Numbered from the stretch's first letter, positions 8,852 through 64,000 are shown. The stretch: 64,000 bases of DNA from Mustelus asterias (GCF_964213995.1 NC_135830.1:19158001-19222000), one strand, 5' to 3'. Numbers and translations are program-made. The notes: generated from the letters alone by a model not told the origin.

Positions 8852-9011
8852 GTGCACCAAAGTATACAGCGGGCAGCATCGTAGCGGGCAGCAGAGTGAG
8901 TGGGAAGTTGAGTGAGCTGTCAGGGCTTTGGCTCACAGGGCTTGGACGAGTTTTTGTTTCCTTACACTCTTATTAACTTTTCACTGTCTTACTTGACATA
9001 AAGTGTCCAGT

Positions 9012-9942
9012 ATGAGTGTGAAACCAATGTGTTGTTCCCAGTGTAGGATGTGGGAGGTCCTGGAGGCATCTGGCCTCCCGGACATCCACATCTGTGAGGG
9101 GTGTGTCGAGCTGCGGTTCCTGAGAGACCGTGTTAGGGAGCTGGAACTACAACTCGAGGATCTTAGGCTGATGAGGGAGAATGAGGAGGTGATAGACAAG
9201 AGCTATCATCAGGTGGTCACACCAGGGCCACGGGAAGAGGCCAAGTGGGTGACGGCCAGGAAGGGTAAGGCTAGGGTGGTTGAGAGCACCCCGGTGGATT
9301 TGCCCCTGCACAACAAGTACTCCTGCTTGAGTACTGCTGGGGGGGACAGCCCGCCTGGGAGTGGGCAGCAGTGGCCGTGTCTCCGCAGTGGAGTCCAGCC
9401 CTGTAACTCAGAGGGCTAAGGAAAAGAGGAGGAAGGCGGTATTAATCGGGGACTCGATGGTGAAGGGGACAGACAGGCGTTTCTGCGGAGGTAGGCGGGA
9501 TTCTCGCATGGTGGTCTGCCTCCCTGGGGCCGGGATCCAGGATGTCGCTAGTCGCGTCCCGGAAATCCTGAGGTGGGAGGGAAAGGAGCCTGAGGTAGCG
9601 GTACATATTGGTACCGCTGATGTGGGTAGGAAGGGAGAAGGGGTCATGAAAAGGGAGTACAGGGAATTAGGGAGACAGCTGAGAAAGAGGAAAGCAAAGG
9701 TAGTAATCTCAGGATTACTGCCTGTGCCACGGGAAGGTGAGGGCAGGAATGGAGTGAGGTGGAGGATGAATGTGTGGCTGAGGGACTGGTGCAGGGGGCA
9801 GGGATTCAGGTTCCTGGACCATTGGGACCTCTTTAGGGGCAGGGGTGATCTGTATACAAAAAACGGGTGGAACTTGAATCACACGGGGACCAATATCCTG
9901 GCCGGTAGGTTGGCTAAGGCTACTGGGGAGAATTTAAACTAG
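9012..9942 (+). pseudogene. CR1 ORF1: CxxC...CxxC Zn finger, leucine zipper and SGNH/GDSL esterase, with one +1 frameshift near 9360
   Basis: ORF 9003..9419 (CCSQC...ICEGC...LRDRVRELELQL) plus ORF 9361..9942 (LIGDSMV, HIGTAD). Confidence 0.9.
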
Positions 9943-9947
9943 ATAGG

Positions 9948-12900
9948 TTGGGGGGAGGGGAGCTAGAAGAGTTGACTAGGATCAAGGAACTAATTGATGG
10001 GGGGGAGGATGCAGGGGTAAGGGGAATTACAAAATTAATGGTAGAGGAGAGGGTGCAAGTGAATGAAGGCGGTAATTTAGATAAGGGAGTAGAGGGAGAC
10101 GGTGTTCGCGACTCATCAAAGCGGGTTCAGATAAAAGCTGGAATAAGGACACTTTGCCTGAATGCACGAAGCATTCGGAACAAGGTGAATGAGTTGATGG
10201 TGCAAATCAGCACAAGTGGGTACGATCTAGTGGCCATTACAGAAACATGGCTGAAAGGTGACCAGGACTGGGAGATGAATATCCAGGGGTATCAGGCGTT
10301 TAGGAAGAATAGACAGGAAGGAAAAGGTGGTGGGGTCGCGCTATTAATAAGAGATAATATCAGGGTAGTACTGAGGGATGACATAGGCTCTGAGGAACAA
10401 AACGTGGAATCATTATGGGTAGAGATGAGGAATAGTAGAGGGAGAAAGACACTAGTAGGTGTGGTATATAGGCCCCCAAATAATAATGTTGAGGTAGGGA
10501 GGGCTGTAAACAAGCAGATAAGGGATGCGTGTAAAAACGGAACGGCAATAATCATGGGGGACTTCAACATGCACATTGACTGGCAGACTCAAGTCGGTAA
10601 GGGTGGAATGGAGGAAGAGTTCTTAGAATGCTGTCGGGATAGTTTCCTTGAACAGCATGTTACGGAACCGACGAGGGAACGAGCTATTTTGGATCTGGTA
10701 TTGTGTAACGAGGTAGGTAGAATTAAGGATCTTATTGTGAAGGACCCTCTTGGGTCTAGTGACCACAATATGGTCGAATTTCTGATTCAGATGGAAGAGG
10801 AGAAAGTTTGGTCTCAAACCAGTGTCCTCTGTTTGAACAGAGGGAAATATGATAGGATGAGGGATGAATTGGCTAAGGTAGACTGGGAGAGCAGGCTGGC
10901 AGGTAGGATAGCTGAGGAACAGTGGAGGATTTTTAAGGAGATCCTTTTCAGTTCTCAGCAAAAGTATATTCCAGCAAAAAACAAGGATTGTAAGAAAAGG
11001 GAGAACCAGCCGTGGATAACGAAGGAAATAAAGGAGAGTATTAAAATAAAAACAGCTGCGTACAGAGTGGCCAAAAATAGTGGAGAAACAAGTGATTGGG
11101 AAAAATTTAAGAAACAACAAAGAGAGACTAAGAAAGCGATAAAGAAAGGAAGGTTAGACTATGAAGCTAGGCTAGCAATTAATATAAAAAATGATAGTAA
11201 AAGTTTTTATAAATATATAAAAAGGAATAGAGTGGCTAGAGTGAATGTTGGACCCTTGGAGGACGAGAGGGGGGAGTTAATAGTGGGAAATGAGGATATG
11301 GCTGAGTCTTTAAATACGTTTTTTGTGTCGGTCTTCACGGTGGAGGACACAAGTAGTTTGCCAAATATTAACGATAGAGGGTTGGCAGCAGGAGAAATAC
11401 TTAATACGATTAATGTTACCAGAGAGGCAGTGCTGGGTAGACTAATGGGACTGAAGGTGGACAAGTCCCCGGGTCCGGATGGAATGCATCCCAGGGTATT
11501 GAAAGAAATGTCAGAGGTAATAGTGGATGCGTTAGTGATTATTTATCAAAACTCGTTGCATTCTGGGGTAGTGCCGGTTGATTGGAAAACGGCTAATGTT
11601 ACGCCGCTGTTTAAAAAAGGAAGGAGACAAAAGGCGGGTAACTATAGGCTGGTCAGCTTAACGTCTGTAGTAGGGAAAATGCTGGAATCCATTATTAAAG
11701 AGGAGATAGCAGGGCATCTGGATAGAAATGGTTCGATCAATCAGACGCAGCATGGATTCATGAGGGGAAAGTCGTGCTTGACGAACATGTTGGATTTTTA
11801 TGAAGATGTGACGAGGGCGGTTGATGGAGGAGAACCGGTGGATGCGGTGTTTTTGGATTTCCAAAAGGCGTTTGATAAGGTGCCCCATAAAAGGCTGCTG
11901 AAGAAGATTAGGGCACACGGAGTTGGGGGTAGTGTGTTAAAGTGGATTGGGGACTGGCTATCCGACAGGAAGCAAAGAGTCGGAATAAAGGGTGTTTTTC
12001 CGGTTGGAGGAAGGTAACTAGTGGCGTGCCGCAGGGATCGGTACTCGGGCCGCAACTGTTTACCATTTATATAGATGATCTGGAGGAGGGGACGGAGTGT
12101 AGGGTAACGAAGTTTGCAGACGACACAAAGATAAGTGGAAAAGTGAATCGTGTGGAGGACGGAGAAGATCTGCAGAGAGATTTGGACAGGCTGAGTGAGT
12201 GGGCGAGGATATGGCAAATGGAGTATAACGTTGATAAATGCGAGGTTATACACTTTGGAGGAAATAATAACAAATGGGATTACTATCTCAATGGAAACAA
12301 ATTAAAACATGCTACCGTGCAAAGGGACCTGGGGGTCCTTGTGCATGAGACGCAAAAGCCCAGTCTGCAGGTACAACAGGTGATCAAGAAGGCAAATGGG
12401 ATGTTGGCCTATATTGCGAGGGGGATAGAATATAAAAGCAGGGATGTCTTGATGCACCTGTACAGGGCATTGGTGAGGCCGCAGCTGGAATACTGTGTGC
12501 AGTATTGGTCCCCTTATATGAGGAAGGATATATTGGCATTGGAGGGAGTGCAGAGAAGGTTCACCAGGTTGATACCGGAGATGAGGGGTTTGGATTATGA
12601 GGAGAGGCTGAGGAGATTGGGTTTGTACTCGTTGGAGTTTAGAAGGATGAGGGGGGATCTTATGGAGACTTATAAGATAATGCGGGGGCTGGATAGGGTG
12701 GAGGCGGAGAGATTCTTTCCACTTAGTAAGGAAGTTAAAACTAGAGGACACAGCCTCAAAATAAAGGGGGGTCGGTTTAAGACAGAGTTGAGGAGGAACT
12801 TCTTCTCCCAGAGGGTGGTGAATCTCTGGAATTCTCTGCCCACTGAGGTGGTGGAGGCTACCTCGCTGAATATGTTTAAAGCGCGGATGGATGGATTCCT

Positions 12901-20934: not shown

Positions 20935-21076
20935 CTTCGTCAGGAGACAAAGGGACATCCTGTTCTGAAAGCTCGTGGCCTTTGCTACCAAATTAACCTG
21001 TTGGACTTTAACCTGGTGTTGTTAGACTTCTTGCTGTGTTTACCCCCAGTCCAATGCTGGCATCTCCACATCATGA
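20935..21076 (+). mobile_element. Short PLE pseudo-LTR fragment with a decayed hammerhead
   Basis: GAAAGCTCGTGG..TTTGCTACCAAA..CCTGTTGGACTTTAACCTGGTGTTG..GCATCTCCACATCA, homologous to the 47239-48164 element. Confidence 0.8.
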
Positions 21077-29500: not shown

Positions 29501-31568
29501 TCATCACCGTGAAGTTAAGGTTTAATTTTCTGTTTTGGCTGGCAATATTTCTTTTAGAAGGGACATCAAGCTGAAACGAAGCGTTTCTCTCTCTCCCTGG
29601 TTTTGGAAATTCTGCTCGTTAGCTGAAAGCAAAGCTTCTTGCCTCTCTGGAGTAGAGAATCTGCTTCTGGTAGTTCGACCAGAGTCTCTACCCGGTATTC
29701 TGGGAAGTTGTTCGGATGTCAAACTGTTCTGGGTGCATCAAGAAGGGCTGCTATCAGTCAGAAGGCTGAGATGTCAGATTTTCAAATCTCCAAACAAATA
29801 ACTCAGTTCCAGTATCACTGATGATTAGTCTTTGTTGTGTTAAACCTGTGAAAAGGGTTTCTTTGTCCATGGGAAGTTTGTTTGATTGGAACATTTTATA
29901 TAGATTTTTAAGATTCATACATTATCGTGGTTGTTTTGCTTTTGTTTGTAATTGATAAAAGTTATTGGTAATTGTGTTTCCATACACGTTAAATATATTC
30001 TTAAATGAACATTTTTCTGATAAAAGCTCCCGAGCGGGTCAGTTGGATCATACCTGAGGTGAAAAATATCATGCTCATTTTCGCCAAATAGAAAGTGCAA
30101 AATCTCTGATCCAGACGCGCTTCATAAAACACTTTGGAGTTTCTAACCTGAATTATAACANNNNNNNNNNNNNNNNNNNNNNNNNNNNNNNNNNNNNNNN
30201 NNNNNNNNNNNNNNNNNNNNNNNNNNNNNNNNNNNNNNNNNNNNNNNNNNNNNNNNNNNNNNNNNNNNNNNNNNNNNNNNNNNNNNNNNNNNNNNNNNNN
30301 NNNNNNGAGTTTGTGTGAATGCGTGTGTGACTGCGTGTGACTGTGTATGTGTGTATGTCTCTGGGTGCTTGCATGTGTGTGTTTGAGAGAATGAGTGTGT
30401 GAGAGAAAGTGTGTGTGTGAGTATGTTTGTGTTTGTGTGTCAGTGAATGTGTTCGTGTGTATGCTTTTGTGTGACTGTGTGTGATTGTGTGAGTGTGTAT
30501 ATGAATGTGTGTTTGAGACAGTGTGTGTGTCTCAGTGTGTGTGTGAGTGCATGTGTGTGAGAGATTGTATGTGTGTGTGTGTGCGCGCCTGTGTGTGTGT
30601 GTGTGTGCCTCGAAGAGGTAATTTCTTCCCCAGCCTGTTGTATAATTGCATAATTCCATTCTTTATTTCCCTTCATTACAGCAAACGTAATCGCAATTGT
30701 GACCCTGAAGCTCAGAAACTGTGGTCTGTCCAAATGTGTCACTCGTTACCTGGTGGCCATGTCAGTGGGGGATCTACTGGTCGTTATCTTCGACCTGATA
30801 TTGAGACACATTCCCATTGTCTTTAAAGAACAGTTTTATTTCCTGAAGTCCATGCCCGTGTGTAATATCCACGCCATCCTGCTTTATGCAGCCACTGACT
30901 GTTCTGTCTGGTTCACCGTTGCTTTCACCATGGATCGATTTGTGGCCATTTGCTGCCCCAAGCTGAAAAGTAAATACTGCAGCGAGAAAACAGCGGCTGT
31001 GGTTCTGGGAACAGTGACTGTGCTGAGTTGCTTGAAGAGCATTTACTGGTATTTTATGTTGTTAGGCAAATATATGCTGTGGAACAACCCCTGGTTTTGT
31101 GATTACACATGGGATGTTCTGGAATCTCCGGTCTGGGTAACAATTGAGTTTCTCCACCACATCCTAACCCCTGGTGTCCCATTCGTCCTGATTCTGCTGC
31201 TCAATATTTTCACCGTCAGGCACATTTTAGTGAGCAGCAGAGCCCGCAGGAGATTCCGGGCTCACAGCAGTGGGGAGACTCCTAAAGACCCAGAGATGGA
31301 GAGTCGAAGGAAATCCATCATTTTACTGTTTGTTATCTCAGCCAATTTCATCCTCTTATGGTCAACCTTAATGCTTTTCTCTATATGGAACCGGATGGCT
31401 TGGTTGGGATATCATCATTTACGGTTAGATATGTATTTTATGGAATTGGGCTTCATGCTGCAGCTGTTGAGTTGCTGCACGAACACTGTGATCTATGTTG
31501 CAACACAAACTCAGTTCAGACAACAGTTGAAAAATGTGCTGAAATTCCCCTTTACTGCAATTGTTTAA
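23573..31568 (+). CDS. Class A (rhodopsin-family) GPCR, GPR139/GPR142-like; exons 23573-23801 and 30682-31568, 371 aa
   Basis: Donor CCTG|GTAAGT and acceptor TTACAG|CA join in frame (phase 1) to give YYPILVIVGVP-A-NVIAIVTL. Motifs CGLSKCVTRYLVAM..DLL (TM2), FTMDRFVAIC (DRY-like), WFC (ECL2), PFVLILLLN (TM5), DPEMESRRKSIILL (ICL3/TM6) and CCTNTVIY (NPxxY-like). No stops. Confidence 0.9.
24130..27900. mobile_element. Mosaic of old CR1 fragments in both orientations in the GPCR intron
   Basis: Degenerate esterase, APE and RT-like stretches, and a CR1 3' end at ~24510-24570. Confidence 0.75.
28760..29282. repeat. Degenerate (TG)n microsatellite, resuming at 30307-30607
   Basis: Seen directly. 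Confidence 0.95.
29283..30160 (+). mobile_element. Probable LTR inserted in the TG microsatellite
   Basis: Non-coding ~880-bp block starting TGTTGT and ending ATAACA. The right TSD is hidden by the gap. Confidence 0.45.
30161..30306. other. Assembly gap (146 N)
   Basis: Run of N. Confidence 1.
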
Positions 31569-35545: not shown

Positions 35546-37090
35546 ACATGCACGTGAAGTACCGCAGCTCCCGCCACATGCCGAGAGAGGCCGAATGGCC
35601 AACCGAGGGAGGCCAACTGACCAATGTACCGAGCAAGACCAAATGACTGAGCAAGCAAGGCCAACTGTCCAAGCGAGCAACATCAACTCACTTACTGAGC
35701 GAGCGAAGCCAACTGACTGTGGGAGCGAGCAAGCCCGAATGACCAATTGAAAAAGTGATCAACCAACCAACCAACTGAACAAGGTTGATTGAGAGAGTGA
35801 GGCCGGCTGACTGACCAAGCGAACGAGGCCAACTGACTGATCGAGCAAGGCCAAATGCCCAAGTGAGCAGGCTGGCCCGTCTGACTGAACGACCAAGCAA
35901 TGTTGGCGCTCTGACCAACAAATTGAGGCTGACTGATAAACCGAGCGAAGGAGGTAGACTGACCAGCTGACCGAGGCTGACTTTTCCATGGAGAAATGCC
36001 GACTGACTGACGGAGCGAGCAAGACTGACTAAGTGAGTGAGGCTGACTGACGCACTGAGCGAGAAATGCCGACTGCCCAACCCAACGAGTCAGACTGACT
36101 GATCGAACAAGTGAGTGAGGCCGACTGACTCAGTGAGCGAGGCTAACTCTCTGACTAGCAGAGCAAGGCCGACTCATTGCCCAACTGCGCGAGGCTGAGT
36201 GACCAACCGAGCAAGTGCGAATGACCAACCGAGCGAGGCCTCAACAAACAAGCGACACTGGCTGCCCAACAAGCAATCGAGGCCGCGTCTCCACCCAATG
36301 TTGACTGACTGACCAACTGAGAGAGTGCGACTCACTAATCGACCGAGGCCGACTGACCAACGTTCCCAGTGAAGACGACTGACTGTCTTAAAGAGCAAGT
36401 CTGAGTTGTGAAGAAACAGGACTTGCATCATCTTTCATTACAGAACTGCAACTGAGAAGCTGAACATTCGAAGCAGAGGATGGTTGCTGGTTCCAAATAA
36501 AGGGCTGCAAGTTACGAATTTCTCAAAAAACAGAGAAGCCATCTCTCAGCATTGCATACAATACAGCGGTGAATGGGAGACAACAAAATGGCTGGACCCA
36601 GAGTAAAAGTGTCGGCATATGACTATCCACCAATATTCTCAGACACTCAACCTGATGACCAATGGATAACTTAAGTCAACATGTGGACGATGGTAACAAG
36701 TTTGGGTGAACGCAAACAAGGAATAGCCTTGGTTTTTTCTTTACCATATTGAAGTAAAATTAGATGCAAAGTATTTTCCGAATTGCAGTTGGAAGATTTG
36801 ATCTCGGAAGGAGGTCTGGATAGTTTATTAAACTTTATGGATAAGATTTATCAAAAGGATGACTAATTAAGTGCGTAGGTTGGTCAGATTTCGATAGAGT
36901 TTGGAAATCAGAGGATAGAACTATTGAATAGTATGTGATGAAATTAAATAGGTATATAAATAGGTATATAAAAGGTTTATAAATTCCATTTTACTTTCAA
37001 CTGTCCGAAAGATTTAATAGAGTGTTGGAAGCTGCACATGACATGGAAGAATCGGAAGAGGAAAGAGATAGTGACCAGATAGTGACCAGG

Positions 37091-41476: not shown

Positions 41477-41859
41477 AATAAAGGATCTGTAGGTGGCACT
41501 GGGTTTTAGGATGTATGTGGAGTTGTAAAATAAAATAAAGTGAGTTTGCGAAGAAGTTGGACTTGTATCATCTTTCATAACAGAACTGTAACGGGGAGGC
41601 TGATTATGGGTCACCGACCGACAGTCCGTTCCTGACTGACCGAGCGAGCGAGCGAGGCTGACTGACCGATCGAACAAGTGAGGCCAACAGACTGACTGAG
41701 CGAGGCCGACTGACTGAGAGAGCGAGGCTGTCTCACCAAACAAGCGAGGCTGACTGACCGAGTGACGAAGGCTAACTGACTAATCAAGCGAGAGAGGCCG
41801 ACTGACAAAATAGGTGGCTGACTGAGCGAACGAGTGAGGTCGCCAGGCTGACTGACTCG

Positions 41860-43539: not shown

Positions 43540-43644
43540 CTTCTCTATGCACAGTATGTTTTGTCTGTACAGCACGCAAGAAACAATACTTTCAACTGCA
43601 TACTAATGCATGTGACACTAATAAGTCAAATCAAATCAAATCAA
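43540..43644 (+). mobile_element. 3' tail of a Rex1/Babar-type LINE with (TCAAA)n
   Basis: Homologous to the tail of the minus-strand element at ~51005-51100. Confidence 0.65.
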
Positions 43645-45899
43645 ACTGACTGACAGCTCGAGAAAGGCCAAATGACTAACGGACCAAGCGAGGCCAACAG
43701 ACTGAGCAACTGAGCGAAATAGCAATGTAGACTGCCTGACTGACAATCCAAGGCTGACTGACGGAAGGAGGGAGGCCAACTGATCAACGCAACGAACGAG
43801 GCCACTTGGCCGACCGAACCAGTCTAACCGACCAAGTGAGCGAAGCCGACTGATCATCCAAGCGAACGATGCTGACTGACTGATCCAACGCGTCAGATGA
43901 CTGACTGAATGAGCAAGCAAGACTGACTGACCAACTGAGCGAGCGATCGAAGCCGACTGACCAACCAACTGACCGAGGCTGACTGACTGATGGAGCGAGT
44001 GAGGACAAATGATGGAGTGAGTGAGGCCATCTGATGGACTGAACCAAGCAAGGCCACCTTGACTGACTGAGAAATGCCGAGAGATTGAGCGAGCGATTGA
44101 ATGACTGAATGAGCGAGGGCAACTGACTGATCAAGCGACAAAGGCTGACTGACCGAGCAAGTGACTGAACAAGGCTGACTGACCAACTGAGCAAAGCTGA
44201 CTGGCTGACCCAGCGAAGGATTACGAGAAGCTGACTGACAGAGCGACCGAGGCCAAGCGACCGACTCACCAAGGCTGACTGGCCAATGGACCGAGCGAGT
44301 GAGGCTGACTGACTGAGTGACCAGTAGAGGCTAAAGATCGAGCAGGGCCGAATGTCTAAATGGGCGAGGCCAACTGACCGATCGAGCGAATGGGTAACCC
44401 CGATTGACCGACCGACTGACAAATGTTGTCTCCCTAACAAACCAAGTGAAGCTGACTGAGCGAGAAAGGCGACTGACAGAATGAGTGAGCGATCGAAGCT
44501 GACTGACCAACCAAAGGATCAAGACTGACTGACTGATGGAGTGAGTAAGGCCGAATAATCGAATGAGCGATTGACTCAATCCAGCGAGGCCGACTGACGG
44601 ACTGAGTGAAGCTGAATGACTGACTGAGCGAGCAAGCAAGGATAACTGACCGACTGACTGAGCACCGTTGACTTTCTGACCGACTGAGCAAAAGCAACTA
44701 ATCGAGTGACTGAGCCCAACTGACTGACCGAGTGAGAGAGGCTGATGGACCAACCCAGCGGGTAAGGCAGAGTTCGCAAACGGGCAAGGCCGCCTGCCTG
44801 ACCAACTGAGAGAGGCTGACTGACCAACTGACCGAGTGGCACTGACTGAGCGGACAAGGCAGACTAACTGGGGTGAGAGAGGTGCTGTTGGAAAATTTGT
44901 TGGTAGCAAGTAAGGCTTTGGCTCGAGAGGCTTTGGTGAGCAACGGCTCAGCAAAAAGTACAGGTGAGCTCAGATACAGTCCTTTAGTCTTTAGAGCATT
45001 TGAGATGATAGTTATGGCAGTGACATGCTCCTCCTGCACGCTGTAGGAGCTCAAGGAGACTTCCACCGTCCCTGATGACTATAGCTGTGGGAGGTGCACC
45101 CAGCTGCAGCTCCTTAGAGACCGTGTAAGGGAGCTGGGGCGGGATGCATTCACGATCATCCGAAATGCTGACTGCATCACAGATAAGAGTTTTAGTGAGG
45201 TGGTCATAGCTAAGGTGCAGGAAGAGAGTAGCTGGGTGACCACCAGGAAAGTCAAAGGATGGAGGCAGAGAGTGCAGGAGTCCCCTGTGATCATTCCCCT
45301 CGAAAACAAGTATACCGTTTTGGATACTGCTGGGGGGGGTGACCGTTCAGGGGGAAAGCAGCAGTTTCCAGGTCGGTGGCATTACGACAGGCTCTGTGGG
45401 ACAGCAGGAAAGGGTAAAGGTAAACAGAACCTTATTAATCGGAGACACCATCGTTAGGGGGACAGACAGAAGATTCTGTGGCAGCAAATGGGAATCCAGG
45501 ATGGTGTGTTGCTTTCCGGGTGCCAGGGTCAAGGATGTCTCAGAGCTCAAGGGGAAGGGTGAGCAGCCAGAAGTTATTGTGCACGTTGGCACAAATGACA
45601 TAGGTAGAAATAGTGATGTGGGGTCCAGCGGGCTGATTGTAGGGAGCTAGGATAAAAGTTAAAAACCAGGACCTCAATGGTGGTAATCTACAGATTACCT
45701 CCAGTGTCACGTGCTAGGGAGGGAAAGAACAGGAGGGTATGGCAGATGGGGGCAGGGGTTCGGATTCTTAGATCATTGGGATATTTTCTGGGGCAGAGGT
45801 GACATGTTCAATAGGAACTGGTTGCACCTGAACTGGAGGGGGACCAATCTACTGGCGGGCAGATTTGTTGATGCTGCAAGGGAGGGTTTGAACTAGATT

Positions 45900-46145
45900 C
45901 AGTAAGAAGTTTAACAACACCAGGTTAAAGTCCAACAGGTTTATTTGGTAGCAAAAGCCACACAAGCTTTCGGAGCTGCAAGCCCCTTCTTCAGGTGAGT
46001 GGGAATTCTGTTCACAAACAGAGCATATAAAGACACAAACTCAATTTACATGAATAATGGTTGGAATGCGAATACTTACAACTAATCAAGTCTTTAAGAA
46101 ACAAAACAGCATGAGTGGAGAGAGCATCAAGACAGGCTAAAAAGA
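45900..46145 (-). mobile_element. PLE pseudo-LTR insertion with a hammerhead
   Basis: 12-bp TSD TTGAAC(T/C)AGATT (45888-45899, 46146-46157). Homologous to the 47270-47510 region. Confidence 0.88.
45961..45997 (-). ncRNA. Minimal type I hammerhead ribozyme motif
   Basis: CAC-CUGAAGA-A-GGGGC-UUGCA-GCUCC-GAAA-GCUU-GUG. Confidence 0.75.
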
Positions 46146-47328
46146 TTGAACCAGATTGACAGAGGTGGGGGAGGGATCCTCAGCAGCAGGGAGGCAAGTG
46201 CGAGGGTGGAAGAAAATACAGTAATCAAAAATTAAAGTTGAAGAGACAGGTCAGACTGGACCACGACAGGGAGGAAGGAATGCCTGCTGGATTAAATTTA
46301 ATCTATTTCAACGCAAGAGTGCTGACAGGTAAGGTCGTGGGTAGGAACGTGGAACTGGGATACTGTGGCCATTAGAGAGACATTACTAAGGGAGGGACAC
46401 GACTGGCAGGTTAATGTCCCAGGGTACAGGGGCTTTAGGGGGGCAGAGGTGGAGGGAAGAGCGGAGGGGGAGTTGCTTTTTTGATCAAGGGGAGTATCAC
46501 AGCAGTAGTCAGAAATAACTGAGGGATCATCCACTGAATCTTTATGGGTGGAGATAAGAAATAAGAAGGGGATGGTGACGTTAGTGGTGTTGTACTATAA
46601 GCCCCCAAATAGTCCAGGGGAATAAGAGGAACAAACATGTAGGGAGACTGGGGAGACTTGCAGGAGCAATAGGATTGTCATAGTAAGGATTGAAATTTTT
46701 GTAACATAGACTGGGGCTACCATAGCGTTATGATCTTAGGTGGGGTGGAATTTGTAAAGTGTGTTCAGGAAAGTTTCCTCAAGCAGTATATAGAGGGTGC
46801 TACTCTTGGGAAGGGGCAAAGCTCGATCTACTCTTGGGAAATAGGTCTGGGCAAGTGACTGAGGTGACAGTGGGGGAGCACTTTGGGACCAGTGACCATA
46901 GTTCTATTCATTTCAGAATAGTTATGGAGAGGGACAAAACTGGTCCACAGGTTCAAGTTCTAAATTGCGACAAGTGAATTTTGCTGGAATTAGACAGGTG
47001 CTTGCAGGGGTCGATTGGAATAGTTTGTTTGCAGGCAAAGGGACCACTGGCAAGTGGGAGGCCTATAAAAGTGATAGCTGGAGTCCAAGGCCTGTATGTT
47101 CCTGTGAGGGCGAAGAGCTAGGTTGGCAGGAGTAGGGAAGCCTGGATGGCAAGAGATGTTGAGGCCAGAAGAAAAAGGAAGTATGGCTCAGGTACAGGCA
47201 GCTGGGATCAAACGAATCCCTGGATGTATATCGGTGATGTGGAGATGCCGGCGTTGGACTGGGGTGAACACAGTAAGAGCTTTAACAACACCAGGTTAAA
47301 GTCCAACAGGTTTATTTGGTAGCAAATA

Positions 47329-47365
47329 CCACTAGCTTTCGGAGCGCTGCTCCTTCGTCAGATGG
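47329..47365 (-). ncRNA. Minimal type I hammerhead ribozyme motif
   Basis: CCAU-CUGACGA-A-GGAGC-AGC-GCUCC-GAAA-GCUA-GUGG. Confidence 0.8.
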
Positions 47366-48069
47366 AGTGGAAATGTGCTCTCAAACAGGGCACAGAGACA
47401 CAAAATCAAGTTACAGAATACTGATTAGAATGTGAATCCCTACAACCAACCAGATCTTAAAGATACAGACAATGTGAGTGGAGGGAGGATTAAGCACAGG
47501 TTAAAGAGATGTGTATTGTCTCCAGACAGGACAGTCAGCAAGTCCAGGAGGCAAGCTGTGGGGGTTACTGATAATGTGACATAAATCCTATATCTCGGTT
47601 TAGGCCGTCCTCATGTATGCGGAACTTGGCTATCAGTTTCTGCTCAGAGACTCTGCGCTGTCGTGTGTCATGAAGGCCGCCTTGGAGAACGCTTACCCGA
47701 AGATCAGAGGCTGAATGCCCGTGACTGCTGAAGTGCTCCCCAACAGGAAGAGGACAGTCCTGCCTGGTGATTGTCGAGCGGTGTTCATTCATCCGTTGTC
47801 GTAGCGTCTGCATGGTTTGCATGAGGACGGCCTAAACCGGGATGTTGGATTTATGTCACATTATCAGTAACCCCCACAGCTTGCCCCCTGGACTTGCTGG
47901 CTGTCCTGTCTGGAGACAATACACATCTCTTTAACCTGTGCTTAATGCTCCCTCCACTCACATTGTCTGTATCTTTAAGATCTGGTTGGCTGTAGGGATT
48001 CGCATTCTAATCAGTATTCTGTAACTTGATTTTGCGTCTCTGTGCCCTGTTTGAGAGCAGATTTCCACT

Positions 48070-48106
48070 CCATCTGACGAAGGAGCAGCGCTCCGAAAGC
48101 TAATGG
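48070..48106 (+). ncRNA. Minimal type I hammerhead ribozyme motif
   Basis: CCAU-CUGACGA-A-GGAGC-AGC-GCUCC-GAAA-GCUA-AUGG. Predicted cut after A48102, with AATAAA at 48119. Confidence 0.82.
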
Positions 48107-49381
48107 TATTTGCTACCAAATAAACTTGTTGGATTTTAACCTGGTGTTGTTAAAACTCTTACTGTGTATATAGGTGATACAGGAACTTACTGAAGAAAGA
48201 CATCAGGAGGGGTTAAGGGGGGCACGATATAACTTTGGCTGAGATGATTAGGATGGATCCAATGAGGTTTTAAAAGCATCTTAACGGAAAAAAAATAACT
48301 AGAAAGAGAGTAGGACCACTCAAGGACAAAAGTGGACACGTATGTATGGACCCGCAGGAGATGGACGAAGTCCTCAATGAATATTTCCCCTCTGTGCTTA
48401 CTGTGGAGAAAGTCATGAAGACTTGGGAACTTGGGGAAGCTCGTATTGGTATCTGGGGATGGTCCGTGGCACATTAGAGGAGGTGTTGGACATATTAGAA
48501 TGTATGAAGGTAGATAAATCTCCTGGCCCTGGCTAGATACATCCAAGACCCTTACACAATGTTAGAGAAGAAATTCCAGGGGTTCTGGCTGATATATTTT
48601 CATCATCGTTAGCCACAGATGAGGTCCCTGAAGACTGGAGGGAAGCGAATGTTGTGCTCTCATTTAAGAAGGTCTGCAAAGGACCTGGGAACCTGGGAAC
48701 GACAGACCAGTAAGCCTAACATCTGTGGTAGGTAAGTTACTTGAGAAGATTCTGAGAGATACAATATGCATGTATTTGGAAAGACAGGGTTCCATTCGGA
48801 GTAGTCAGCAAGGGTTTGTGCACGGGAGATCATGCCTCACACATTTGTTGGAATTCTTTGATGAAGCGACCACGATGGTTGATGAGGGCAGGGCGATAAA
48901 CGAAGGTAATATGGATTTCAGTAAGGCCTTTGATACCGATTGAACGTGCTTGGCTACTCTGGGAGGTTAGACTGCATGGAATCCAGCGAATACTGGCAAA
49001 GTAGAGACACAAATAATGGTCGGAAACAGAGGGTAATAGCGGAAGGATGCTTGTCAGACTGGAGGCCTGGGACTAGTGGTGTGTCTCAGGGGTGGGTGCT
49101 GGTCCCATTGTTGTTTATTGTCTGCATCAATGATTTGGATGAGAATCTACAAGTCATGATTAGTAAGTTTGCAGATGACACCAAATTAGACGCTATCGTG
49201 GACAGCGAGGAAGGTTACCAGAAACTGCAGCAGGACCTTGATCCGCTGGGGAAGTGGCCCAAGAAATGGCAAATGGAGTTTAATATTGATACGTGCGAGG
49301 TGTTGCATTTCACGAAAGTTAGATCAATGTCGGAGTTTCATGGTAAATGGTAGGGCTTTATGGAGTGTCGTAGAGCAGAGG

Positions 49382-49473
49382 CACAGTAAGAAGTCTCACG
49401 ACACCACGTTAAAGTCAAACAACTTTATTTGGAACCACGAGCTTTCGGAGCGCTGCTCCTTCATCAGGTGAGC
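49382..49473 (-). mobile_element. Short PLE pseudo-LTR fragment with an intact hammerhead motif (49436-49470)
   Basis: CAC-CUGAUGA-A-GGAGC-AGC-GCUCC-GAAA-GCUC-GUG followed by AATAAA and the PLE terminal sequence. Confidence 0.82.
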
Positions 49474-50158
49474 TGAGTGAGTAATATACATTGTGTATTA
49501 TTGAATAGCTGGGGTCCCAGTACTGATCCTTGTGGTGCACCACTACTCACTGTCTGCCAATTGGAAACTTACCCATTCATTTATTCTGTTTGTCTCCTGT
49601 CCGACAACAAGTTCTCTATCCATTTCAATGCACAACCCCTGTTTCTGCCTCATTGTGATGATGACTACATTCAAGAAGGTCTTGATTGGTTAAAAAGCGT
49701 ATCGTGAAGTGCGCTGGTCGTAAACGGCGCTGTATAAATTCAAATCTGTCTTTCTTAAGTTAACTTCAATCCCAGCCCTCTGGTTACTGAACCCAGGTAA
49801 AACGGTTCCTCATTATCTGCTCCATCAAAACACTTGTCCCCGACATATAATATTGAGCAGTATCATGAAGTATCTGTTTAATCTTCTTTGCTCCAAATGG
49901 AACGATTCCGGTCTCTATAATCTTTCCACAGAACCTCCTCATCCCTAGACGTGATGCAAAGTGGAGGTTTGAGCCGTTTCGAACTTGGGAGTTGCTTGCA
50001 TATAAAGGGGGTATGGTAACCCCTGCATTATAGAACCTTGTTTTACGGAATTATAATTCAGCTGAAAAACTTTGCCACGCGGCAGAGAAATTGATCGAAC
50101 ATTAGAATCAAAAAACTGCATTCATCTCAATTATTGTATATTTCTCCACAACCTACGG

Positions 50159-55965: not shown

Positions 55966-56499
55966 AGCAGACTGTAAACTTACCAATTTACTAAGAATCG
56001 TCGGTTCATTCATGTTGTTCAGGAGACGTACCACGATAAGGTTTGTAACATGGTGATGTTAATACTGCTCTTTGAATTTGGTGCGCTGCATTGAAATCGC
56101 ATGCAGCGGATTGCTTCATTATTCATTGTGACAAGAGGAACCAGCACAGGCAATGTAAATATACATTTCTGAGGGCAATTAATGTGATTGAGGAAATGGG
56201 CGGATTTTTCTCCCTGCTGTTCAAACTGGCATAAGTATCAATCCTATTTTCGATCTGGAATTAATTCCAGCTCCTCTTAATTCATGCGCCGCAGGAGAGC
56301 AGTTGGTGTCACACAAGAACAACCATTCGACTGGAGTCTGGCAACTATTGAGCAGGTGTGCATGTGTGTGTTCATGTCTGTCCGTATATGTGCGTGAGTT
56401 TGAATGTATGTGCGTGTGTGTGTATTGTGTGGGTGCCTGTGTGTGCTTTGGGAGAAAAGCGTCGTGCCAAAGGCCAGGGTTCTGTCAATTCCATAGTGT

Positions 56500-56654
56500 G
56501 GAGTTGCCGGCGTTGGACCGTGGTAGGCACAGTAAGTAGACTCACAATACCACAATATCAGGTGAGTGAGGTGATGAAAGAGCAGTGCTCCGAAATCTCG
56601 TGCTACCAAATAAACTTGTTGGACTTTAATCTGGTGTTGTGAGAATACTTATGG
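56500..56654. mobile_element. Two-armed PLE pseudo-LTR derivative inserted at the 5' end of a tRNA-Gln
   Basis: 11-bp TSD TTCCATAGTGT (56489-56499, 56655-56665) and a decayed hammerhead at ~56571-56602. Confidence 0.8.
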
Positions 56655-56724
56655 TTCCATAGTGTAAAGGGTAGCACTCTGGGCTTTGAATCCAGCGATG
56701 CAAGTTCGAATCGTTATGGAACCA
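56653..56724 (+). pseudogene. tRNA-Gln(TTG), probable pseudogene
   Basis: GGTTCCA/TGGAACC acceptor stem and CTGGG-CTTTGAA-TCCAG anticodon arm, but the T-stem GCAAG/CGTTA is mispaired. Confidence 0.82.
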
Positions 56725-56769
56725 CTATTCCCATCACCCCATCTCTTGTTTCAACTGGACGAGACGGAA

Positions 56770-57446
56770 AAACCCAGTCTGCAGGTGCAACAGGTGATCA
56801 AGAAGGCAAATGGGATGTTGGCCTATATCGCAAGGGGGATATAAAAGCAGAGATGTCTTGCTGCATCTGTACAGGGCATTGGTGAGGCCGCAGCTGGAAT
56901 ACTGTGTGCAGTATTGGTCCCCTTATTTGCGGAAGGATATATTGGCCTTGGAGGGAGTGCAGAGAAGGTTCACCAGGTTGATACCAGAGATGAGGGGTGT
57001 TGATTATCAGGAGAGATTGAGCAGATTGGGTTTGTACTCGTTGGAATTTAGAAGGCTGAGGGGGGATCTTATAGAGACCTACAAGATAATGAAGGGGCTG
57101 GATAGGGTAGAGGTGGAGAGATTCTTTCCACTTAGAAAGGAAGCTAGAACTAGAGGGCACAGTCTCAAAATAAAGGGGGAGTCAGTTTAGGACAGAGTTG
57201 AGGAGGAACGTGTTCTCTCAGAGAGTGGTGAATCTCTGGAATTCTCTGCCCACTGAAGTGGTGGAAGCTACCTCGTTGAATATGTTTAAATCACGGATAG
57301 ATGGATTCCTGATCGGTAAGGGAATTAGGGGTTATGGGGATCAGGCGGGTAAGTGGAACTGATCCGCTTCAGACCAGCCATGATCTTATTGAATGGCTCG
57401 AGGGGCTAGATGGCCTACTCCTGCTCCTATTTCTTATGTTCTTATG
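56770..57446 (+). mobile_element. 5'-truncated copy of the full-length CR1 family
   Basis: Close match to ~12355-13050. Confidence 0.93.
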
Positions 57447-57681
57447 TGAGTGCAGGACACCCGGTCCTCTGTGGATATTCTGTCTGAGCGCTTTGTACAA
57501 ATGAACAATCATCCTCTGGGGCTGTTGCAACAAAGCCAGCGGAGGCATTCACTGCAGCGTCTGCAGTGTGATTGCGGTGGAATTTGCTGGAATTTCCTCA
57601 GTGTTTAAAATTCCACTTTCTGAGAATCTTATCTAAAAACGCCCCTTAGCAAAGCAATCTTCGCTTTAGCAAAGAGAAAAA

Positions 57682-57753
57682 AGGTTCCGTCGAGATTTGA
57701 ACTCGGATCACGAGATTCAGAGTCTGGAGTGCTCATCATGACATCACAAAACC
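57682..57753 (-). pseudogene. tRNA-Gln(CTG), probable pseudogene, with a T-run terminator
   Basis: B box GTTCAAATC intact, D-loop GG lost, mismatches in the D, anticodon and T stems. TTTTT follows at 57681-57677. Confidence 0.82.
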
Positions 57754-58335
57754 CCCAACGCTGGCACCCCTGCAAATGGTCAGTCAAAGCATTAGACTTC
57801 TTTCATTCAATGAGGCAGCAACAGTAAATGTAACAACAATGCGTCGTTATGCGCCACCATTGAAATGCGAAAAGCTCGCCCCCAAAACTAGAGCAAATCA
57901 TTTCATCCCAAGCCATATCGGGAGGTTTCAGCAGAAATATTCATGTTTCACAGGGGCAAGTGCCCAGTTACAAAGTCAAACAGGAACGGCCCTTCAATCC
58001 ATCGCACCGGTCAAACAACCACCTCGCCAATGTTTGTATAATTCGCGAAATTACACATCAAGCCTGCTAGATTCAAATCTGAATCTTTGGTATAAACCAC
58101 AGATGTAAGGGCCCCCCATCACTGATCCCTTCGGGACCGCACTGGACATCAGCTTCCTTTGGGAAAACAGCCCTCCACCATCACCCTCTGCTCCTTGCCA
58201 CTCAGACAATTCCGGATCGAATCTGCAAAATGTCCTTGGCTCCCATCGATCGCAGTGCATAATAGTACATTGTTGTCACATTTGCTGTTGCTGCCACATT
58301 GAATGAAAGAAGTCAAATGCTTTGGGCGACCATAG

Positions 58336-58677
58336 GGGCGGCACGGTAGCACAGTGGTTAGCACTGCTGCTTCACAGCTCCAGGGACCTGGGTTCAGTTC
58401 CCGGCTTGGGTCACTGCCTGTGTGGAGTTTGCACATTCTCCTCGTGTCTGCGTGGGTTTCCTCCGGGTGCTCCGGTTTCCTCCCACAGTCCAAAGATGTG
58501 CGGGTTAGGTTGATTGGCCATGCTAAAATTGCCCTTAGTGTCCTGAGATGCATAGGTTAGAGGGATTAGTGGGTGGATATGGGGGTAGGGCCTGGCTGGG
58601 ATTGTGGTCGGTGCAGACTCGATGGGCCGAATGGCCTCTTTCTGCACTGTAGGGTTTCTATGATCAACTTCTATGAT
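58336..58677 (+). mobile_element. HE1-type V-SINE inserted ~20 bp upstream of a tRNA-Gln
   Basis: Full head, V-domain and tail. Confidence 0.93.
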
Positions 58678-58695
58678 TTGCAGCTGCCGACGTTT

Positions 58696-58767
58696 GGCTC
58701 TGTGATGTAATGGTGAGCACTTTGGATTCTGAATCCAGTGATCCGAGTTCAAACCTCAGTGAATCCT
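58696..58767 (+). pseudogene. tRNA-Gln(CTG), probable pseudogene
   Basis: GATGTAATGGTGAGCAC..TTCTGAATCCAG..CCGAGTTCAAACCTCAG, with a mispaired acceptor stem. Confidence 0.82.
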
Positions 58768-59013
58768 TGCTTTGCCATGACTGATTTGCTGAACGGCATT
58801 TCGCTTAAACTTCTTATAAAATACGAATCGAGACAATTTGTCTGCCAGTTAAACTGCTATTACAATGCACATTGCTGAGCCACTGGCGCCAGATGCCTGC
58901 AACATCGTTTTTTAAAAATCTTGTTGTTCCTCTTTATCACCTCTGTTGAAAAAAAATGTCTAGTTTGTGTCACACAACAACCATTCGATTGGAGTCTGGC
59001 AATTATTGAGCAA

Positions 59014-59287
59014 GTGTGTGTGAGTGTATGTGTGTGTATGTGGCTGTGTGTGCGTGATTGTGCGCGTGTATGTGTGTGTGATAGTTTGTGTGATTGTGTG
59101 CGTGTATGTGTCTGTGTATGATTGTGTGCTATGTGTGTGTTTGTGATTGTGCGCGTGTATGTGTGTGTGATTGTGTGCGTGTATGTGTCTGTGTATGATT
59201 GTGTGCTATGTGTGTGTTTGTGATTGTGCGCGTGTATGTGTGTGTGTGTGTGTGTGATTTTCTGCGTGTGTGTGTGTGTGTGTGTGT
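59014..59287. repeat. (TG)n microsatellite (the homologous tract is at 56356-56446)
   Basis: Seen directly, with the same flanks in both units. Confidence 0.95.
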
Positions 59288-59327
59288 TCATGGGAAAAAG
59301 GCGTCATGCCTTAGGCAGAGTCCTGTC

Positions 59328-59399
59328 AGTTCCATGGTGAAACAGTTAGCACTCTGGACTTTGAATTCAGCAATCCGAGTTGGAATTTCAGAGGAGCTA
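59328..59399 (+). pseudogene. tRNA-Gln(TTG) pseudogene
   Basis: AGTTCCATGGTG..TTAGCACTCTGGACTTTGAATTCAG, with the B box broken (GTTGGAAT). Confidence 0.8.
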
Positions 59400-59689
59400 C
59401 TATTTACACCGTCCCACCTCTTGTTTAAATTGGGACAGATGAGTGAGTGAGCGACGCCTGTCGGTGGACCCTCTGCCCACTGTGGCTTCTCTGCCTCTGA
59501 GAGCTTTGCATTCTTGAGCAATCGTTCTCTGGTGATGATGCAATGACCCCAGGAGAGTCATTCGCTGCATCGTCTGCAATGTGATTGCGGTGGGATTGGC
59601 TGAAATTTCCTCAGTGTTTAAAATTCCACTTTCTGAGAATTTTAAATAAAATGCCCTTCAGCAAACCAATCATCGGCTTCAGCAAAACA

Positions 59690-59762
59690 ACTTTCCACCG
59701 AGGTTTGAACTCGGATCGCTGGATTCGGAGTCCAGAGTGCTCATCGTTACACCAGTGAAGCC
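59690..59762 (-). pseudogene. tRNA-Gln-body gene with a CCG anticodon, probable pseudogene
   Basis: Perfect CTGGA-CTCCGAA-TCCAG and CCGAG-TTCAAAC-CTCGG arms, but the top three acceptor pairs are broken. Confidence 0.8.
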
Positions 59763-61736: not shown

Positions 61737-61763
61737 TGCTGTTTGTCTTTACGTGTATTACCA

Positions 61764-61849
61764 AATATAAACCTGTTGGACTTTAACCTGGTGTTGTGAG
61801 ACTTCTTACTGTGCCCACCCCAGTCCAACGCCGGCATCTCCACATCATG
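61764..61849 (+). mobile_element. PLE pseudo-LTR terminal fragment
   Basis: 16-bp TSD TTTACGTGTATT(A/G)CCA (61748-61763, 61850-61865) and the PLE terminal sequence. Confidence 0.82.
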
Positions 61850-63618: not shown

Positions 63619-63657
63619 AGTTTTTGTATGAGTGTTAGGGCTCTATGTAACGTGGTG
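63619..63657 (-). promoter_or_regulatory. 23-RSS of the intact V segment
   Basis: CACCACG (63657-63651), 23-nt spacer, ACAAAAACT (63627-63619). Confidence 0.85.
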
Positions 63658-63965
63658 CTTCATCGCCGCGCAGTAATACACGGCTGAGTCAGAAAGCTGA
63701 GTGTCTGTGATGTTCAAGGGGATGTTTGTGTTCTTTCTGTCCTGTTCGGCAGAAAACCTCTTTGCAAATGCCGGCGCGTTCTCTTCATTCCCACCAGTGT
63801 GTCTGTGCAGCATGTACTGAACGCCCCGTCCCGGGTACTGTACGTACCAGTATAGGTAAGCTACTGTGTATGTGGCGTGGTAGTGACAGGACAACACCAC
63901 GCTTTCCCCTTCACTTACTGCTACTACTGGGGGCTTTTGGGAAAGTTCATCCGGCTGGCTCTGCG
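63658..63965 (-). CDS. T-cell receptor alpha/delta-type V exon, apparently functional; leader exon outside the window
   Basis: Acceptor TTTTTCCAG| at 63966. Open frame QSQPDELSQKPP..EGESVVLSCHY..YLYWYVQYPG..RFSAE..LNITDTQLSDSAVYYCAAMK with Cys23, Trp41 and Cys104, followed by the RSS. Confidence 0.92.
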
Positions 63966-64000
63966 CTGGAAAAAGTAACAGAATGTTACAAACATAACTT

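Follow-up and report, generated by a model that had tools for sequence, protein, structure and literature searches.

Minimal hammerhead motifs in the pseudo-long terminal repeats of an abundant Penelope-like element of the shark Mustelus asterias

Introduction

Minimal type I hammerhead ribozymes with a short helix I were described in the pseudo-long terminal repeats (pLTRs) of metazoan Penelope-like elements (PLEs) by Cervera and de la Pena in 2014 (PMC4209133). They have one unpaired nucleotide separating position 9 from 10.1, a G10.1-C11.1 pair and a palindrome at 15.2-16.2, are mostly found as solo copies of several consensus families per genome, and occur also as opposite-strand pairs 100-700 bp apart. 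All these traits are found again in the motifs analysed here, which lie in a 64,000-nucleotide stretch of the genome of the shark Mustelus asterias (GCF_964213995.1 NC_135830.1:19158001-19222000; hereafter the window). Because of this feature-for-feature match the kind of motif is already known, and its presentation in the initial annotation of the window as an under-described system does not hold: the 2014 paper already has the motif together with its extra nucleotide and palindrome. Sharks are unnamed in the text portions and supplementary file 2 of that work, and its file 1 may list them; footprints in the end positions of copies, as given below for the shark family, are not reported in those portions. 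Statements on this and the other cited papers refer throughout to their accessible parts.

The carrier of the motifs resembles the endonuclease-bearing (EN+) elements Neptune and Nematis (Craig et al. 2021; PMC8557442). These share with the shark element one open reading frame (ORF) coding a reverse transcriptase (RT) and, at the C terminus, a GIY-YIG endonuclease with CCHH, a CX2-5CxxC linker, a DKG motif, 5' truncation, partial tandems, inverted 5'-truncated copies and a one-sided tail of 30-40 bp. None of the papers found names the shark family, and the likeness is one of features, not of position in a tree. Penelope and Poseidon elements have no zinc finger in the linker, unlike the shark element (PMC8557442). 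The Poseidon element from Anolis (PAc; Frangieh et al. 2024; PMC11167929) has in common with it a hammerhead at the pLTR-ORF junction, a tail set by the RT start sites, which are two in PAc, and the extension of both DNA strands, both of which are cut in PAc; its ORF starts inside stem II, whereas the ATG of the shark element is found ~100 nt past the cut. The pLTRs of Penelope elements from the rotifer Adineta vaga (PMC3846280) also combine a TATA box with an initiator (Inr)-like TCACT and have palindromes at inverted junctions. They differ in a TATA spacing of 20 bp, in palindromes that were read as self-priming on antisense RNA, and in that no link to copy ends was made.

We read the window motifs as minimal type I hammerheads that belong to the pLTR of an abundant PLE of Neptune/Nematis type, with window copies that are likely dead and a ribozyme that likely serves the RNA of the element itself and not host RNA. 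A probability of about 0.7 is given to this reading. Why PLEs retain a hammerhead of such low activity is described as unclear in the literature (PMC8557442). With its more than 100,000 intact motifs, a young family such as this one makes the ribozyme question testable by junction counts and offers natural variants for assays.

Motif architecture and abundance

Direct reading confirmed four motifs at the positions given in the initial annotation (Table 1), each with the order helix I 5' strand, CUGANGA, an additional A, a 5-bp helix II, GAAA, GC, UH and helix I 3' strand. They are the only four among the 12 CTGA.GA...GAAA matches of the window in which helix II is closed beside GAAA. A GU-rich tract and AATAAA follow each of them; the hexamer, announced at 11-18 nt downstream, is present at 9-18 nt past the predicted cut, the shortest distance (9 nt) being that of the 49436 copy. 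The four motifs represent three insertions rather than four copies, the motifs at 47329 and 48070 being arms of one inverted insert. The relatives noticed near 20950 and 56571 are indeed decayed kin, the former cut off inside the core and the latter devoid of C3 and with a mutated AGCU. A Rfam scan of the window (E<=10) gave 12 matches, none to a hammerhead, which places the motif outside the Rfam hammerhead families, and monomer folding compared with shuffles revealed no extra stability (z -1.3 to +0.05). Both results are unsurprising, in our view, because the motif lacks helix III.

The exact 28-nt core has 30,427 matches (15,080 + 15,347 on the two strands) in the 3.68-Gb genome. The reversed control has none (0 + 0), so the window motifs are not due to chance. 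A random sample of 1.14 Mb, taken as 114 10-kb stretches at round coordinates, holds 97 matches to a 52-nt anchor located 3' of the ribozyme, or 92 against a larger database. An intact motif, defined by an intact core, helix I of >=3 bp, helix II of >=4 bp and AGCU, is present at 41 of the 92 sampled 3' ends. This extrapolates to ~300,000 3' ends and ~130,000 structurally intact motifs (~36 per Mb) in the genome; the range for the latter is ~95,000-180,000 by Poisson arithmetic, and wider in fact since twin arms depend on each other. Of the 1,140,000 sampled bases, 26,833 (2.4%) belong to the family. These numbers bear out the high copy number proposed initially, and compare with ~4,000 motifs in the coelacanth and ~9,000 in Xenopus as counted with the descriptor of the authors (PMC4209133). 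Note that at G000:C4:98883971-98884220 three matches that start at the cut site follow each other in tandem with 111-nt spacing, possibly as a small retrozyme-like or satellite array.

The carrier element

The 81-residue endonuclease piece found in the inverted insert of the window was used as query and led to 82,234 candidates in the genome, of which 150 were scored; their open frames reach 912 residues. Among six loci with long frames that were examined, L081 is a complete element. It consists of a 5'-truncated pLTR with its tail, an ATG right after the tail, an ORF of 892 codons and a second pLTR. The two pLTRs are 95% alike and both have the hammerhead, the 5' motif with one core change (G12). 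The element can be written as pLTR + tail - ATG - RT - C-X4-CxxC linker - GIY-YIG - pLTR, and this anatomy, together with the truncated ends seen in the window, confirms that the motifs belong to the pLTR of a shark PLE.

The single ORF of L081 matches the Pfam domains RVT_1 (E=8.7e-9) and GIY-YIG (E=1.4e-4; 22.5 bits, to be compared with the curated cut-off of 22.6). The endonuclease is C-terminal and of the CCHH kind, the cysteines between the GIY-like and YIG motifs having been read directly, and the C-X4-CxxC linker that precedes it falls within the CX2-5CxxC pattern of Neptune and Nematis. The pLTRs, the inverted 5'-truncated copy, the one-sided tail and the target-site duplication (TSD) are likewise those of EN+ PLEs. 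By its sequence features and the published definitions (PMC8557442), and not by a tree with named references, the carrier is classified as a C-terminal EN+ PLE of Neptune/Nematis type. The closest named proteins to its ORF are from sharks (84-92%). A shark gene model named "epsin-2 isoform" contains the RT of this element (86% identity), and is either a chimeric annotation or a case of exonisation. Folding predicts a stem of 9 bp (UGUUGGACU with AGUCCAACG) around the two usual 3' end points, both in 47235-47310 (-) and in every tailed copy; this stem recalls the stem-loop at the RT start of PAc (PMC11167929).

Conservation and covariation

Five subfamilies (A-E) were sorted by the spacer after the cut, with majority sequences drawn from 40, 12, 12, 1 and 7 long copies; the D majority is one long copy, and the sorting of D and E used part of the GAAAGCU motif. 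The majorities vary at N7 (C, A or U), at H17 (A, U or C, never G), in loop II and at paired positions, around the CUGANGA and GAAA-UH core that defines minimal hammerheads. The comparison of core with flanks that the initial annotation had called for comes out for the core on the upstream side, where 42 of 71 positions are invariant across majorities against 15 of 16 in the core (Fisher p=0.008), and about equal on the downstream side (43 of 48). The AGCU palindrome to which helix III was said to be reduced is found in all five majorities, its self-duplex amounting to about -4 kcal/mol.

Of 88 copies selected with a limit of <=2 mismatches in the 5' core, three were removed as false or duplicated core matches, and pairing was followed in an alignment of the other 85. 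The extra A between A9 and G10.1 is invariant in these copies, which were selected on that very segment, and 93% of the helix cells are paired. In the 77 distinct rows the G10.1-C11.1 pair is GC in 61, GU in 12 and other in four. Pair 1 of helix I is C-G in 43 rows and U-A in 22, a change that is one inherited event. Pair 3 of helix II is A-U (56), G-U (17) or G-C (1), and one copy has a GGAAC/GUUCC helix II. Two-sided changes occupy 24 cells compared with 9.2 after shuffling, and reflect essentially one or two events. What stands of the structure-preserving variation first described between copies is one well-sampled compensatory change; much of the variation is post-insertion change, e.g. 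CpG decay, and the CCAU/AUGG versus CCAU/GUGG difference is a single base change and not covariation because 47329 and 48070 are twin arms. Selection likely acted on master elements, and single copies decay afterwards, often at CpG. An alternative hairpin of 4-5 bp (GUGGC-loop-GCUAC type) just after the cut could sequester the helix I 3' strand in subfamilies A-C; it is absent in D and E, whose spacer is shorter.

Where copies begin

A set of 121 unselected 5' ends was assembled from the random stretches and from the flanks of other loci. Thirty of them fall within the 14 nt before C3, compared with nine in the 40 nt upstream and eight in 24 nt of the motif itself (p 4e-11 and 1e-7 with arms taken as independent; 25 of 97 if insertions are counted). 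Ends are most frequent 4-6 nt ahead of the core, where an Inr-like CACTC is found. A TATA-like box is located 29-30 nt before the Inr-like A in three of the five subfamilies (B, C and E), and is found neither in A nor in the single D copy. The pile-up likely corresponds to transcription start from a pLTR promoter, as we infer from its position beside these elements. Stub starts were also inspected for an additional G that a cap could have left: all nine ends at -6/-5 are preceded by G, several being templated by the fold-back arm; for ends at -9 to -4 that are not fold-backs the count is four of eight. The rotifer pLTRs cited above have a related TATA plus TCACT arrangement (PMC3846280), and Drosophila Penelope has an internal TATA-less promoter (PMC2377424).

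A second class of ends was sought at the predicted cut by counting patterns in which four non-element bases are required before a given start. The matches number 101 at -3, 268 at the cut, 134 at +1 and 81 at +3, or about 350, 1,390, 750 and 455 once corrected for base composition. Among the first 100 of 3,090 B/C matches, inspected by eye, 17 of the 35 starts in eight compared positions are at 0 or -1 (p 0.002), and among the first 100 of 1,814 subfamily A matches, inspected likewise, the excess is spread over -1 to +1. The first 50 of 3,300 fold-back junctions were also examined and 37 could be assigned. Arms of subfamily A end 12 times at -1/0 and three times upstream (p<=0.006 under four microhomology-weighted nulls; p 0.003-0.055 for the excess among all positions). 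One recurrent junction makes up nine of the 50, and a 3-bp inverted repeat could explain it. The 3,300 fold-backs in the cut window contrast with 788 in a downstream control window, a contrast not used as proof of cutting, since other causes may make very short fold-backs rarer. Taken together the counts are suggestive of a 3-5-fold excess of ends at the scissile bond in young subfamilies, weaker than the start pile-up and partly confounded by microhomology.

The insertion ends of the family, ~300,000 in number, might then be a fossil map of the 5' ends of PLE template RNA, with one landmark where transcription starts, immediately ahead of the ribozyme, and another at the scissile bond. This proposal, which rests on genomic copies, is tentative and a little short of even odds. 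If true, the genome would provide evidence of cleavage in vivo by a metazoan minimal hammerhead and of reverse transcription of the cut RNA, and promoter, ribozyme and tail-initiated RT would be tied into one cycle. No literature on PLE copy ends at the ribozyme cut, or on this shark family, was found in a search that covered few subscription papers.

Proposed life cycle and its weighing

From the anatomy, copy number, conservation pattern and copy starts observed, a promoter and an RNA cycle can be proposed as follows. The pLTR promoter (TATA-like box ~30 nt before the Inr-like CACTC) would start RNA about 6 nt before the core, and the full transcript would therefore have one hammerhead at each end, beginning just before the first and ending after the second ~3 kb away. 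The two hammerheads may pair through AGCU, each supplying helix III of the other; the dimer and circle model is reviewed in PMC6765202. They would cut after UH, probably helped by a protein of the element; the ribozyme of the Anolis PLE cuts only with protein present (PMC11167929). The product would be an uncapped unit-length RNA, possibly circularised. The start of RT would be in the tail, immediately 3' of the 5' ribozyme and often with both nicked DNA strands as starting points, and the outcome would depend on the template. If the RNA is linear and uncut, RT would run off where transcription starts and leave the common stubs of ~130 nt, and likewise that at 49382-49476; if the RNA is cut, it would do so at the scissile bond, giving the smaller class. 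On circular or tandem RNA it would continue into pLTR and ORF to produce long copies such as 47235-47819 and L081. Note that L081 reaches ~310 nt upstream of the cut, past the putative start, which points to a template longer than a single linear unit. Extension from both nicks would yield a head-to-head insert.

Several observations weigh against a ribozyme that works in this manner. Cleavage and RNA ends are here predicted from genome sequence. PLE minimal hammerheads cleave poorly in vitro even as dimers (PMC4209133), and of nine Xenopus dimers one was cleaved and eight were not (bioRxiv 2026.07.22.740005). Fold-backs account for 27 of 30 cut-site loci, many of them on the CCATGG palindrome. 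Old subfamily D has no cut-site peak (22 vs 21, p=0.09; first 100 of 160, by eye), and fold-back arms of subfamily B give four vs three (p 0.07 unweighted, <=0.002 weighted). The conservation of the downstream flank, about equal to that of the core, is a further such point, as is subfamily A, which looks young (copies 95-98% alike) yet has no TATA-like box.

Some of these facts would also fit a ribozyme that is maintained as a passenger or for its fold in cis and rarely cuts in vivo, the end pile-ups being produced by RT stalling or snap-back at local hairpins and microhomologies and not by RNA ends. Fold-back junctions do follow short palindromes (CCATGG, AAT..ATT, AGCT), and the flat profile of subfamily D points the same way. 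The Anolis ribozyme is dispensable in vitro, where its mutants insert normally, and no RNA-seq ends were reported at its cut (PMC11167929); Naiads thrive with no hammerhead at all (PMC8557442). This explanation is nevertheless unlikely. The subfamily majorities keep the catalytic nucleotides unchanged and never have G as H17, the excess of subfamily A ends over upstream positions survives the microhomology-weighted simulation, and several junctions (L344, L349, L342 and L364) have the cut as their starting point, either blunt or with both arms bearing an additional base. A hammerhead that acts on the RNA of its own element is the likelier reading.

Short copies and host transcripts

The initial annotation had also proposed that the family includes short derivatives. 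A separate non-autonomous family of short interspersed elements or retrozymes with its own masters could be suspected from subfamilies D and E, in which most copies are short and start near one point, and from the report of retrozymes derived from pLTRs, with a type I hammerhead as here, in one chondrichthyan (bioRxiv 10.64898/2026.07.22.740005). The latter are non-LTR retrozymes built as tandem arrays of hammerhead units, in contrast to the window copies, which are solo or head-to-head and accompanied by ORF remnants; identity with such an ORF-less retrozyme was considered for the window copies and rejected. The 5' ends of the short copies are ragged, spread over ~15 nt as in truncated inserts. 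Long copies exist in every subfamily, stubs and long copies share the subfamily diagnostics, and the window copies form no tandem arrays. A family of short derivatives is improbable, and none was seen.

The suggestion that dispersed copies cut or terminate host transcripts is very improbable. The genomic density of intact motifs and the AATAAA with GU-rich tract after each motif would speak for it, as would three sense copies within 3.5 kb on the - strand that could pair in principle, two of them with compatible CAC/GUG helices I. Solo monomers, however, are unable to form helix III, and a read-through RNA of 47235-48170 is predicted to fold to a duplex of -731 kcal/mol whose 348 bp pair both motifs away. 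Among the 85 window ORFs scanned, a subset of the ORFs listed, no host exon was found near the PLE copies, which lie in debris of a long interspersed element (LINE) ~14 kb from the nearest coding exons, the G protein-coupled receptor (GPCR) and immunoglobulin frames described below. Exact cores are about equal on both strands genome-wide, which is uninformative without gene annotation.

Insertions in the window and their surroundings

The features of the window are listed in Table 1. The copies, 5'-truncated or fold-back pieces of the PLE 3' end that are likely dead, are located within a decayed LINE or at its end; we take this LINE to be of CR1 type.

Table 1. Hammerhead motifs, PLE insertions and host element in the window
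Feature	Position	Strand	Remarks
Minimal hammerhead, subfamily A	47329-47365	-	N7=C, H17=A; predicted cut 47333/47332
Minimal hammerhead, inverted arm	48070-48106	+	predicted cut 48102/48103; AATAAA 48119-48124
Minimal hammerhead	45961-45997	-	N7=A, H17=U; helix II GGGGC/GCUCC, 5-nt loop; predicted cut 45964/45963
Minimal hammerhead, old subfamily D	49436-49470	-	H17=C
PLE 3' end, natural orientation	47235-47819	-	94.7% to full-length L081 over 590 nt
GIY-YIG C-terminal coding piece of 47235-47819 insert	47819 to stop at 47568	-	
Inverted 5'-truncated arm of 47235-47819 insertion	47820-48167	+	tail-less
5'-truncated pLTR copy, subfamily B	45900-46146	-	247 nt; 12-nt TSD, 1 mismatch
Stub, old subfamily D	49382-49476	-	~95 nt; 5' end ~5 nt before core, within pile-up zone
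Stub broken off inside core	20950-21073	+	no sense CUGANGA; tail present; short inverted piece before
Decayed stub	56572-56651	+	without C3, AGCU mutated; inverted remnant 56498-56536
Ribozyme-less 3' stub	61759-61847	+	tail and long TSD; seventh copy, overlooked initially
Decayed LINE hosting insertions	45000-49380	+	start approximate; RT match 48934-49350, RVT_1 E=6e-9; resembles other window LINE pieces

In the fold-back insert (47235-48167) the coding piece is followed by the 3' pLTR with hammerhead, AATAAA and a tail of ~33 nt (47235-47267). Its arms of 348 nt are 96% complementary and separated by 204 nt that, on the - strand, run in frame into the left arm and encode the end of the endonuclease; a 14-nt TSD with one mismatch flanks the whole. 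A TSD was sought around the 49382-49476 stub and none was found. Helix II of the 20950 stub resembles the GGAAC/GUUCC variant, of which this stub looks like a decayed member. The 56572-56651 stub ends 1 nt before a tRNA-Gln-like gene, the first of five tRNA-like matches at 56653-59761 (Rfam 31-45 bits), where ARAGORN identifies one tRNA-Gln(ttg) and one tRNA-Arg(ccg); this is apparently a decaying tRNA-Gln cluster.

The GPCR frame is of the rhodopsin family (304 residues, 30654-31565 (+), 7tm_1 E 5.5e-21) and starts just past a stretch of N. The immunoglobulin V-set exon is at 63646-63999 (-) (E 2e-18), and a scan of 31 short frames revealed no further exon on the - strand. A young LINE piece at 8997-12014 (+) codes an SGNH-esterase ORF1 and a 699-residue endonuclease-RT frame. 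Upstream of the host LINE, a degenerate (GACT/GAGC)-rich tract occupies 43600-44970, and similar tracts are present near 35600-36300 and 41600-41850.

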